Positions 2,945 through 40,400 are shown, counted from the stretch's first letter. The stretch: 64,000 bases of DNA from a virus (IMGVR_UViG_3300037067_005124:7760-71759), one strand, 5' to 3'. The notes: generated by a model from the sequence alone, not told the origin. Translations and numbers: made by a program.

Positions 2945-3265
2945 ATGCAAAGAACAGACGAATACATTAGGCCGAGAGGATATTACGACAATAAGGGAAC
3001 ATTGCTAACCGCCGATTTTCAAAAACTAAATGGCGTTTTGTACGGTTCGGCGATTACAAAATACGCAGTAGGCACCACAACGGCAAGCAATGGCATGATA
3101 TTATCTCATGGTCTTAATTCATCCTTTGCTTGCTTTGTCAGTCCGCAATCGGGAACTTATTTTACTTCAGGAAAAGCTACAGGTTCACAAATTACATTTT
3201 ACATATCTAACATATCGGGAGTTGCAACCAGTGCGGTAGTTGATTGGATTGCATATGGATATTAA
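2945..3265 (+). CDS. Small virion/tail protein
   Basis: In the tail operon; ends in AVVDWIAYGY as many small fibre-associated domains do. Confidence 0.45.
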   Translation: MQRTDEYIRPRGYYDNKGTLLTADFQKLNGVLYGSAITKYAVGTTTASNGMILSHGLNSSFACFVSPQSGTYFTSGKATGSQITFYISNISGVATSAVVDWIAYGY

Positions 3266-4283: not shown

Positions 4284-6014
4284 ATGTCAATAACAATGAA
4301 TTGTTCTTTATTTGATTTAACAAATTCACATTTGGCAGATAGTGCATACTTTGCAAAAGCTGAAGGGTTTCTTGTAAACAATACAGATATAGCGGCAGCC
4401 CTGGCAGCATTTAAAACAAAAGTAGGATCTGCTCAATGTGACTTGTATTTTAGTACCGGCACATACAGGCTCAGCACAAACGCAACTATGCCTGAAAATA
4501 TCCGCATTATACCGGCCAACGGTGCCATGTTTAATCTTGATGTCGGAGTTACTTTTATAGTTAATGGACCGATAGCTGACACAATGGGGCAGATTTTTTC
4601 CACTACCGGATATGTCAACTTGACCAGTAATATATATCTTGACTTTGTACGTCCTGAATGGTGGGGCGCAAAGGGTGACGGTGTAACCAATTCGACACTA
4701 GCAATAATGACTGCTGATTATTCCTGCAAAAAGGTAAAATTTGCAGGAGGCACTTACCTACTATCTGATATGAACGGGGAAGCAGCTGTTGAATTCGGCG
4801 GGTATGGTGTTAGTTGGGAAGGTGTTACTAATGTACAGAATGCCGTTGTTGCGAATGCTGGAAAGCTTACGAGAATTATGTCCTACGGAGAGCAAGCCCA
4901 TACTATCAAATGGACAGGTATGGTAAATTCAGTATTTGAAAATATTACATTTAGTGGAAACTTTGTTACTAATGAAGTAGTACGATTTGATGTAGTGTGT
5001 ACCAACAACCATTTTAAAAACTGTACTTTTGAAGCTGCAACACCTTTGAATTTGGCTGAAAATGATGGCGGTGTATTAATATCTTTCGCTGGCAATGCAG
5101 GAGTAGACAACAACACATTTGAGAAATGTTGGATAGTGCAAAAATATGATGATGGTGACCCAAGCTATGCTTTTTCTTGTGTGAAAATTGATGGTGGATC
5201 TAATACATTTTTAAATGCCTTTAAAGATTGCTTTTTCGCTTATGCAAAATATCTTGTTGATGTACGCGCATCTACAGGCGGCGATTTCTACCATTGCCAT
5301 TTTGACAACTGGAAAGCAGTTGGGGGATATGCTATTGTGATAATGGGGCTAACTCAAAGGTTAATAATTGAGGATAGTTATACAGAATTTGAAGGTCAAT
5401 TTATATCACAGACTGCTAGTGCAACATCTTCTCCTGTACCGATTATAATAAGAAACAATCAATTGAATGCTATTGACACTATTATAGGGTTACAATTGCA
5501 ACAGCCTGTAGTATTGGAAAACAATTATCTAAATGCAAATGTATCAGTCTTAAATACTACAATCACTACGGGACAGCAGTTTTATGTGCGTTCAAGAAAT
5601 AATTTTTTCAATGGTGCGTTTGGATTTGTCGGTGCAGGGTATCTAAAGGTTTATGATTCTGGAAGTACGACAGGGACGGGTGGCGCACTAGATGGATTTA
5701 TGGAAAATGTAAAAATAGGTTTTGGCGGTTCAAAAATAACAAAGCATCTATCTGAAACCTATCTATTAAACTTTACAGTTCCCGGAGCAGTTCCTGGGGA
5801 AGTGGAATCAGCAGAACAAACTTTAACAGGTGCAGCAATGGGTGATACGGTAGTTGTTTCATTTACTGCCGCCCTGCCAGCAGGATTTATTTTAACCGGA
5901 TATGTTAGTTCTGCCGGTAAAGTGAAAATAAAGTGGATACAGTTCAGTGGTGCTCCTACTGACCCTGATGGTGCAGGTAATTATTACAGGGTAGATGTGT
6001 GGAAGCACACATAA
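4284..6014 (+). CDS. Tailspike / polysaccharide depolymerase (pectate-lyase-like beta-helix)
   Basis: VRPEWWGAKGDGVTNST motif at the start of the beta-helix; Asn/Phe-rich repeats; tail-module position. Confidence 0.75.
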   Translation: MSITMNCSLFDLTNSHLADSAYFAKAEGFLVNNTDIAAALAAFKTKVGSAQCDLYFSTGTYRLSTNATMPENIRIIPANGAMFNLDVGVTFIVNGPIADTMGQIFSTTGYVNLTSNIYLDFVRPEWWGAKGDGVTNSTLAIMTADYSCKKVKFAGGTYLLSDMNGEAAVEFGGYGVSWEGVTNVQNAVVANAGKLTRIMSYGEQAHTIKWTGMVNSVFENITFSGNFVTNEVVRFDVVCTNNHFKNCTFEAATPLNLAENDGGVLISFAGNAGVDNNTFEKCWIVQKYDDGDPSYAFSCVKIDGGSNTFLNAFKDCFFAYAKYLVDVRASTGGDFYHCHFDNWKAVGGYAIVIMGLTQRLIIEDSYTEFEGQFISQTASATSSPVPIIIRNNQLNAIDTIIGLQLQQPVVLENNYLNANVSVLNTTITTGQQFYVRSRNNFFNGAFGFVGAGYLKVYDSGSTTGTGGALDGFMENVKIGFGGSKITKHLSETYLLNFTVPGAVPGEVESAEQTLTGAAMGDTVVVSFTAALPAGFILTGYVSSAGKVKIKWIQFSGAPTDPDGAGNYYRVDVWKHT

Positions 6015-6044
6015 TAACAAAATTTTTCTCACAGTTATTAATTA

Positions 6045-6073
6045 TTGACTAAATATTACTTAAATAGTATTAT
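6045..6073 (+). promoter_or_regulatory. Sigma-A promoter for the radical SAM moron
   Basis: TTGACT-17 nt-TATTAT, followed by an AAGGAGG RBS. Confidence 0.65.
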
Positions 6074-40249: not shown

Positions 40250-40288
40250 AATAAAACCTCCATGCTCGACGGTGACCGTCCGCAGCTG

Positions 40289-40317
40289 TTGACATTATAT
40301 TAACTTTGGGGTAAACT
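40289..40317 (+). promoter_or_regulatory. Sigma-A promoter driving the solitary CRISPR-repeat RNA
   Basis: TTGACA-17 nt-TAAACT; predicted start near 40324. Confidence 0.7.
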
Positions 40318-40323
40318 TAAATT

Positions 40324-40394
40324 GTCGCTCAATGAGCGTGGATTGAAAAATAATTATATACTATTGCTATGCCAGCCCGCTTAATGCGGGTTTT
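40324..40394 (+). ncRNA. Solitary type I-C CRISPR repeat-like unit (candidate Racr / crRNA mimic)
   Basis: GTCGCTC-AAT-GAGCG-TGGATTGAAA versus the type I-C form GTCGCTCC...GGAGCGTGGATTGAAAT; then an AT-rich pseudo-spacer and a CCCGC-TTAAT-GCGGG-TTTT terminator. Confidence 0.7.
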
Positions 40395-40400
40395 GGCATC

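Follow-up and report, generated by a model that had tools for sequence, protein, structure and literature searches.

RNA anti-CRISPRs are recent discoveries (2023-2026), and the catalogues of them rely on near-full-length repeat similarity. Viral solitary repeat units were reportedly described by Faure et al. in 2019. Such units act as RNA anti-CRISPRs (Racrs) (Camara-Wilpert et al., 2023; PMC10651486). RacrIC1 is located behind acrIC5 in a Bifidobacterium prophage; it is a full-length unit of 34 nt that agrees with a repeat at 29/34 positions, lies 11 nt behind acrIC5 and is part of a bicistronic RNA. In the case of RacrIF1, the active RNA is the piece that lies upstream of the cleavage by Cas6f; this piece nucleates a filament of Cas7f that contains neither Cas5f nor Cas8f (PMC10651486).

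The Cracrs are viral copies of host CreA/CreR RNAs, in which a repeat-like unit is joined to a short spacer-like segment and, in many cases, a terminator. Besides competing for Cas proteins, they direct these proteins to cas or creT promoters. Type I-C Cracrs have been predicted, and the median length of the spacer-like segment was 19 nt in I-F Cracrs and 25 nt in host CreA/CreR (Liu et al., bioRxiv 10.1101/2024.10.29.618823). Viral and host regulatory mini-arrays were found to have a conserved seed and a diverged remainder (Shmakov et al., 2023; PMC10120712). The principle of type I-C Racrs and Cracrs is already published; what is new here is a stripped-down hairpin, a family defined by its seed and the size of the short-hairpin class.

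In the canonical type I-C repeat, an overhang of 2 nt precedes a 7-bp stem with a 5-nt loop, and a tail of 11 nt follows (PMC8524198). Cas5c reads the stem base, U22-G23-G24 just after the cut and the 3' overhang, whereas neither the loop nor the 5' overhang proved critical in assays (PMC8524198).

Structure of the RNA element

The stretch of DNA analyzed (64,000 nt, hereafter the window) corresponds to positions 7760-71759 of an IMG/VR virus record of 71,759 bp that was rated complete by CheckV. The phage is temperate and podovirus-like, has a G+C content of about 39% and carries genes for an integrase, a P22-type portal and a large terminase (TerL). Megablast with the 5-kb region gave no match to cultured phages, and the best TerL identity to cultured phages was not above 32%. 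The RNA element occupies a gap of 151 bp between two genes on the minus strand (Table 1), and an ORF check of this gap found no meaningful ORF.

Table 1. Features of the RNA element and its neighborhood (positions counted from the first letter of the window)
Feature	Position	Strand	Description
RHH gene, 151 aa	39794..40249	-	Divergent from the RNA cassette; beta-rich N-terminus and C-terminal ribbon-helix-helix (Arc-like) DNA-binding domain
Palindrome	40268..40280	.	GACGG-TGA-CCGTC; between the ribosome-binding site of the RHH gene and the divergent promoters
Sigma-70-type promoter	40289..40317	+	-35 TTGACA 40289-40294, 17-nt spacer, -10 TAAACT 40312-40317
Miniature repeat hairpin	40324..40338	+	GTCGCTC-AAT-GAGCG: GU overhang, 5-bp stem CGCUC/GAGCG, AAU loop
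11-nt type I-C 5' handle	40339..40349	+	DNA TGGATTGAAAA, RNA UGGAUUGAAAA
Pseudo-spacer	40350..40368	+	AT-rich, 19 unpaired nt, about 24 nt up to the GC stem
Conserved seed	40350-40357	+	ATAATTAT, pseudo-spacer positions 1-8
Terminator-like hairpin	40369..40399	+	12-bp bulged, inner stem CCCGC/GCGGG, then UUUU
phrog_16123 gene, about 180 aa	40401..40943	-	Function unknown; true start M19 of a 198-aa ORF; directly precedes the RHH gene in sister phages

A reading of the locus from the sequence alone had described a solitary mimic of a type I-C repeat with its own promoter and terminator, and its anatomy was confirmed throughout. The promoter that it named was recovered both by our reading of the sequence and by a promoter scan (10/12 matches, the second best in the region). 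The -10 box ends 6 nt 5' of the mimic, and therefore the predicted transcription start is at about 40324. The mimic was found where transcription would begin, and RNA folding returned its hairpin. The AT-rich stretch (19-24 unpaired nt) and the GC-rich hairpin with its U-tract follow as had been described; the latter was missed by a terminator scan because only 4 T are present, and it would double as the 3' hairpin of a crRNA. The predicted RNA of about 76 nt (40324-40399) folds into exactly two hairpins, which are separated by 30 unpaired nt (-24.8 kcal/mol, z = -2.9).

The repeat mimic has a size of 25-26 nt and is present in a single copy at 40324-40349 (+). Its 25-nt motif, with 21 specified bases of the type I-C pattern, is unique in the window and in the 71,759-bp record, and a shuffle control gave 0/100 matches with up to three mismatches allowed. 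Other handle-like sites across the phage genome were not accompanied by a repeat-like hairpin. The repeat mimic is real and more than a chance occurrence. The absence of cas genes from the earlier description also held, as neither Cas8c (PF09709) nor Cas5 (PF09704) genes were detected in the phage genome; the PF09709 profile did match in genomes G003 and G005. The element thus has the form of a viral solitary repeat unit, for which neither a second repeat inside roughly 100 bp nor cas genes are expected.

The element shares with the canonical type I-C repeat the GU overhang, the CGC...GCG stem base, the G|UGG context of the cut and 10 of the 11 nucleotides of the handle. It differs in having a 5-bp stem and a 3-nt loop, in being solitary and in the 11th handle nucleotide, an A in place of the usual C or U; it is a mimic and not a repeat. 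The determinants of Cas5c recognition (stem base, UGG and 3' tail) are all kept, as the sequence-only reading had stated for the stem base and the handle. The element appears to be built for reading by a type I-C Cas5c, with a cut predicted between 40338 and 40339. We know of no demonstration that a 5-bp stem with a 3-nt loop is a Cas5c substrate.

The shortening of the hairpin accounts for its poor visibility in similarity searches. The element measures 25-26 nt because two stem pairs and two loop nucleotides are missing, and against repeats of 32-33 nt it falls short of the SRUFinder rule, by which identity to a known CRISPR repeat and coverage of that repeat must both reach 90% (PMC10651486). 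The Rfam family CRISPR-DR9 gave only a sub-threshold match (12.6 bits against a cut-off of 45), again because the hairpin is shortened. The part of the supplementary lists of PMC10651486 covered here contained neither the repeat motif of the element nor that of the commonest short-hairpin family described below.

Two TATAAT sequences are present on the minus strand. One is the reverse complement of the seed (40355-40360), which reads CATAAT in locus L217. The other (40297-40302) overlaps the plus-strand -35 box, and transcription may run antisense or divergently toward the RHH gene.

Neighboring genes

No known Acr family was matched next to the RNA element, where the neighbor is the RHH (Arc-like) protein. 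An adjacent acr or aca gene would support a place among the Racrs but is not required for it. This protein belongs to a well-conserved family that is widespread in phages (134 homologues). In its AlphaFold model (pLDDT 86) the N-terminal ~100 residues form a confidently modelled beta-rich domain. A comparison of the protein with the PDB gave no match with E < 0.1, and the fold of the N-terminal domain has no significant neighbor among solved structures; PDB rows resembling WGR, Whirly and coat proteins were weak and not interpretable. The RHH protein may regulate the locus or its divergent promoters. The palindrome upstream of the RHH gene retains its arms in locus L127 with an altered center, and the sister loci L135 and L136 have other GC-rich palindromes at the equivalent position.

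Solitary repeats adjoin the homologues of the RHH gene in L127/L130, L135 and L136 as they do in the window. Among 30 more distant RHH homologue loci in IMG/VR only one doubtful solitary repeat was seen. A general association between the RHH gene and solitary repeats was rejected; it holds among the closest relatives only.

Conservation and insertion site

An orthologue of the element (L127, identical to L129) was found by a pattern scan of JGI metagenomes in a municipal-landfill sample (per PMC9723747). The same allele was present in an ENA assembly (L130), which was reached via look-up of a neighboring protein. Between these loci from two samples and the window, the RNA (40324-40399) was identical at 74/76 positions (97%), and the terminator hairpin at 31/31. 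The two changes alter the loop from AAU to AAC, which leaves the stem intact, and position 12 of the pseudo-spacer. The -35 box of L127 is unchanged and its -10 box is TATACT. The flanking genes of L127 showed only 81% and 86% DNA identity to those of the window, and therefore the RNA is more strongly constrained than the neighboring coding sequence. We count this as showing purifying selection on the RNA. The exact 25-mer was absent from IMG/VR contigs and from all species genomes.

The gap between the ~180-aa gene and the RHH gene measured 37-48 bp in four sister loci (L134, L135, L136 and L199). In L118 the same gap contained a 140-aa ORF and in L196 a 67-aa ORF, while in the window and in L127/L130 it contained the RNA cassette on the strand opposite to both genes. 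Since the contents of the gap differ among sisters, it is a variable accessory site. The RNA cassette is an insertion.

The 140-aa ORF of L118 (754-1176, +), the nearest sister in IMG/VR, had no PHROG or PDB match and may be an accessory or anti-defense gene. A tandem direct repeat of about 60 bp is located at the end of the same contig (1-130); a terminal repeat or an assembly artefact is possible.

A family of cassettes with a common seed

Two further cassettes resembled that of the window. The first, in the sister phage L136, is convergent with the RHH gene and lies just downstream of it. It consists of TTGACA, 17 nt, a -10 box, 6 nt, GUCGC-GAAA-GCG, the same handle with A at the 11th position and a different terminator; its pseudo-spacer agrees with that of the window at 10/12 of the first 12 nt and at 7/8 seed positions. 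The second is in L217, a phage without detectable protein homology to this one. Its cassette has the same promoter layout, a GUAA tetraloop, the 11th-A handle and a seed identical at 8/8 positions, followed by unrelated sequence and a terminator. The spacing of -35 box, 17 nt, -10 box and 6 nt is common to the window, L136 and L217, and the terminators of L136 and L217 are unrelated to that of the window.

Among 63 distinct pseudo-spacers of I-C-like solitary units, only those of the window, L127 and L217 matched ATAATTAT at 8/8 positions and that of L136 at 7/8, and the remaining 59 did not exceed 5/8. An A at the 11th handle position was found in 5/63 of the solitary units collected and is present in all four seed-family alleles. 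In the four-way alignment the invariant block comprised the 3' stem base GCG, the handle and the seed (7/8 in L136). The upper stem, the loop, the distal pseudo-spacer and the terminators differed.

This pattern is the one expected where the seed of a guide matters, as read from the alignment. The four alleles occur in three contexts and may share ancestry, and the conservation could partly reflect common descent and not selection. Alternatively the conserved seed could serve an antisense promoter (TATAAT/CATAAT), although no -35 box was seen. The cassettes appear to be mobile between phages.

The sister loci carried additional solitary units. Two different ones were seen in L136 (about 740-800, +, and about 2390-2510, -), the second with the stem CAGGC/GCCUG and the handle CGGAUUGAAAC. 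Another, in L135 (about 2960-3060, -), has a 4-bp stem and a GCAA loop.

Target and host searches

The sequence-only reading had proposed a search of the pseudo-spacer against phage sequences, which came back empty for this phage and its sisters. No PAM-flanked match was found in the own genome of the phage, the 164 kb of sister loci gave no good match, and the nearest sister record (78.6 kb) gave none. Five related virus records yielded a single match with three mismatches, one of them in the seed. The 15 exact 18-mer matches in IMG/VR were attributed to chance, as none extends and none has a TTC PAM. Four IMG/VR matches to handle plus seed, all in AT-rich coding sequence, were likewise regarded as chance.

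A scan of all species genomes with handle plus seed returned 18 loci, of which eight were array spacers and seven were chance matches in coding sequence. The other three were L142, next to a gene for a K+ transporter, and L148, within an ORF, both of which are probably chance, and L156. Locus L156 (4751-5433), in a Raoultibacter MAG (JAVWCK010000007.1), contains a tRNA-Thr followed by a full-length I-C repeat-like unit and a short pseudo-spacer. Located 87 nt downstream is a partial target flanked by TTC, with a seed run of 11 nt, that overlaps a -10-like CATAAT; it is followed by a hydrophobic ORF of 22 aa and then by an HD-domain (cas3-like) ORF at the contig end. By this gene order, L156 looks like a type I-C CreTA module. 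It shows that TTC followed by ATAAT... is a natural way to occupy a -10 box. Its seed has the form ATAAT-N-ATAT and shares positions 1-5 and 7-10 with the seed of the window, a similarity forced by the search pattern. For this reason, and because its local G+C content is about 54% against 39%, L156 is not evidence for the host of the phage.

A Bacillota host is weakly indicated by the sigma-70 consensus promoters, the strong GGAGG ribosome-binding sites, the G+C content of 39% and the occurrence of homologues in Desulfosporosinus and Paenibacillus. The RHH protein has a homologue with 64% identity that is encoded in an integrase/defense island of Desulfosporosinus burensis. The closest TerL homologues were in MAG bins labelled Babeliales and Phycisphaerae, which were regarded as unreliable binning. 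No close TerL was detected in 112 Desulfitobacteriia genomes, the portal protein matched only viral clusters in the protein atlas, and none of the I-C array spacers sampled incidentally matched the phage. The island of D. burensis (L132, contig BAAHYN010000004.1) has the RHH homologue together with a type I restriction-modification subunit, GmrSD- and Mrr-like nucleases and an integrase.

Proposed mechanism and alternative explanations

We consider it likely that the element is an RNA anti-CRISPR, counting readings as a guide and as a decoy together. The proposal of a candidate RNA anti-CRISPR in the sequence-only reading stood in its anatomy and in the reading as a mimic, and was strengthened by the conservation, the insertion status and the analogous phage elements, but a Racr-type decoy and a CreA-like guide were not separated. 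The comparative data lean away from the decoy that it preferred and to the CreA-like alternative that it had also named, as the handle and the eight seed nucleotides are near-invariant and the rest is variable. We give a little less than an even chance to a guide-like CreA/CreR mimic resembling the Cracrs, that is, a miniaturized type I-C crRNA-like RNA encoded as a self-contained gene.

In such a mechanism, transcription would start at the first base of the mimic, and the host Cas5c would recognize the stem base, the UGG and the 3' tail and cut after 40338. The 3' product, composed of the 11-nt handle, about 19-24 nt and the terminal hairpin, would remain on Cas5c and nucleate a shortened Cas7/Cas8c complex, thereby diverting Cascade subunits from phage-targeting crRNAs. 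Because the handle and eight seed nucleotides are conserved across independent cassettes, the complex is probably also guided, by pairing of the seed beside a TTC PAM, to a host promoter; the sequence TTC-ATAAT... contains a -10-like CATAAT. The promoter could be that of a cas operon or of a CRISPR-guarded toxin, and short pairing would repress it without Cas3 cleavage, as with CreA/CreR and Cracrs.

The element resembles RacrIC1 and other Racrs in being a solitary type I-C repeat mimic in a phage, intergenic and directly behind a predicted promoter. It differs from RacrIC1 in its size of 25-26 nt, in having its own promoter and terminator and in the absence of an adjacent known Acr. As the RNA starts at the repeat, the active product is not an upstream piece of the kind that is active in RacrIF1 and nonexistent here, and only the handle-first 3' product can matter. 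With the Cracrs it has in common the viral location without cas genes and the succession of one repeat-like unit, a short spacer-like part and a rho-independent terminator; its pseudo-spacer, at 19-24 nt, falls within the range reported and has a conserved seed and a diverged distal part. The handle-first product, the pseudo-spacer length and the conserved seed therefore make the element Cracr-like more than RacrIF1-like. With host CreA/CreR and CreTA (Li/Liu et al.; PMC10120712) it shares the logic by which a handle and a partial-match seed give repression without cleavage, but these are found in cellular cas loci, usually with a full-length repeat, and the element is on a phage without cas genes. 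Membership in the Cracrs is not established because the defining match, with 9 or more PAM-proximal nt in common with the spacer of a host CreA/CreR or a PAM-flanked site in a cas or creT promoter, was not found for the element in the scan of species genomes with handle plus seed. The hairpin is also different, with 5 bp and a 3-nt loop (3 bp and a tetraloop in the relatives), a form that does not appear in the main text of bioRxiv 10.1101/2024.10.29.618823.

A pure decoy (a Racr in the strict sense) would be cut and bound by Cas5c and Cas7 but would guide nothing, competing with crRNAs and forming short, useless complexes. We regard this as unlikely, though it is the alternative that survives best. 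RacrIC1 and other solitary units inhibit by mimicry, and a non-targeting crRNA also lowers interference (PMC10651486). The failure to find a target in the own genome, the sister loci, the related records and the IMG/VR 18-mers agrees with a decoy, as does L121, a near relative in motif, in which the handle is separated from a strong terminator by only ~14 nt, too few for a guide. However, a decoy requires no particular pseudo-spacer, yet positions 1-8 were kept while the other variable parts diverged, and the product of RacrIF1 is an upstream RNA, which the element lacks. The conserved seed therefore favors the guide-like mimic over the pure decoy.

It is distinctly improbable that the element is no anti-CRISPR RNA but either a decayed array remnant or a signal for the neighboring genes, such as a divergent promoter region, the terminator of the ~180-aa gene or an antisense promoter for the RHH gene. 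A role as a signal would fit the minus-strand TATAAT at 40302-40297 and that within the pseudo-spacer, as well as the position of the 40369-40399 hairpin directly after the stop codon of the ~180-aa gene. But neither a promoter nor a terminator requires the 21 bases that the I-C repeat specifies, among them the complete handle, and an antisense promoter would drive no gene in L136, where the cassette is convergent and downstream of the RHH gene. In a remnant, neither 97% conservation against 81-86% in the coding flanks nor the recurrence of the same promoter spacing in an unrelated phage (L217) would be expected.

For normal licensing of Cas3 in type I systems, a pseudo-spacer needs to be longer than 19-24 nt. 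This counts against a one-spacer unit that would use the host Cascade against rival phages or plasmids for superinfection exclusion, which is very improbable because the sister loci and records gave no good match and the IMG/VR 18-mer matches had no TTC PAM, even though viral mini-arrays targeting related viruses are known (cited in PMC10120712).

Returning to the guide-like mimic, we tentatively propose, at well below an even chance, that the 'A-ATAATTAT' cassettes are mobile minimal guide RNAs. They would direct the type I-C Cascade of the host to the -10 box (TTC-ATAAT...) of a promoter, either of cas genes or of a CRISPR-guarded toxin, and silence the immunity together with its dead-man switch; the 3-5-bp hairpins of these cassettes would represent the smallest substrate of Cas5c. 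From the conservation of the 8-nt seed, a likewise conserved target in a host promoter is predicted. For the phage, the element would be one more counter-defense gene.

Short-hairpin mimics in other viral and metagenomic contigs

A scan of IMG/VR with GUCGCNC and GNGCG arms separated by 3-7 nt detected at least 116 short-hairpin loci. The IMG/VR and metagenome matches listed comprised at least 44 other families, at least 39 of them solitary, with stems of 5-7 bp and loops of 3-6 nt. The stem pair left unconstrained was Watson-Crick in 39/42 distinct mimics listed, G-U in 2/42 and unpaired in 1/42, and all four pair types occurred; this covariation supports an RNA hairpin. The commonest family (gut phage, e.g. 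L003) has a 5-bp stem and a UUCG tetraloop and was present on at least about 70 contigs, mostly from one large metagenome set.

An upstream promoter was not enriched as a feature of the class (8/44 families listed against 20/132 control windows). Many short-hairpin units are probably processed out of longer transcripts, like RacrIC1.

The element and its short-hairpin relatives suggest that phages trim the mimic to what Cas5c reads, and a sizeable set of them would escape searches based on repeat similarity. If the proposal of mobile guides is true, the at least 44 short-hairpin families would mean that a large share of phage RNA anti-CRISPRs is invisible to current searches. Their natural variation resembles a mutagenesis map of the minimal signal for type I-C processing and loading, which is useful for the design of compact I-C guides.

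Some unrelated solitary I-C mimics (L024, L070, L008/L087, L122/L126 and L225) share another feature, in that the 10-15 nt 5' of the repeat are duplicated directly 3' of it. This could be a target-site duplication from insertion, or a pseudo-spacer that copies the upstream flank; the element of the window has no such duplication. In the UUCG-tetraloop family (L003) about 20 nt after the mimic are conserved and are themselves able to form a hairpin. A two-unit mini-array of short-hairpin mimics, 19 nt apart, is present in L218 (about 5990-6060, -) and is similar to a published 'Cracr array'.
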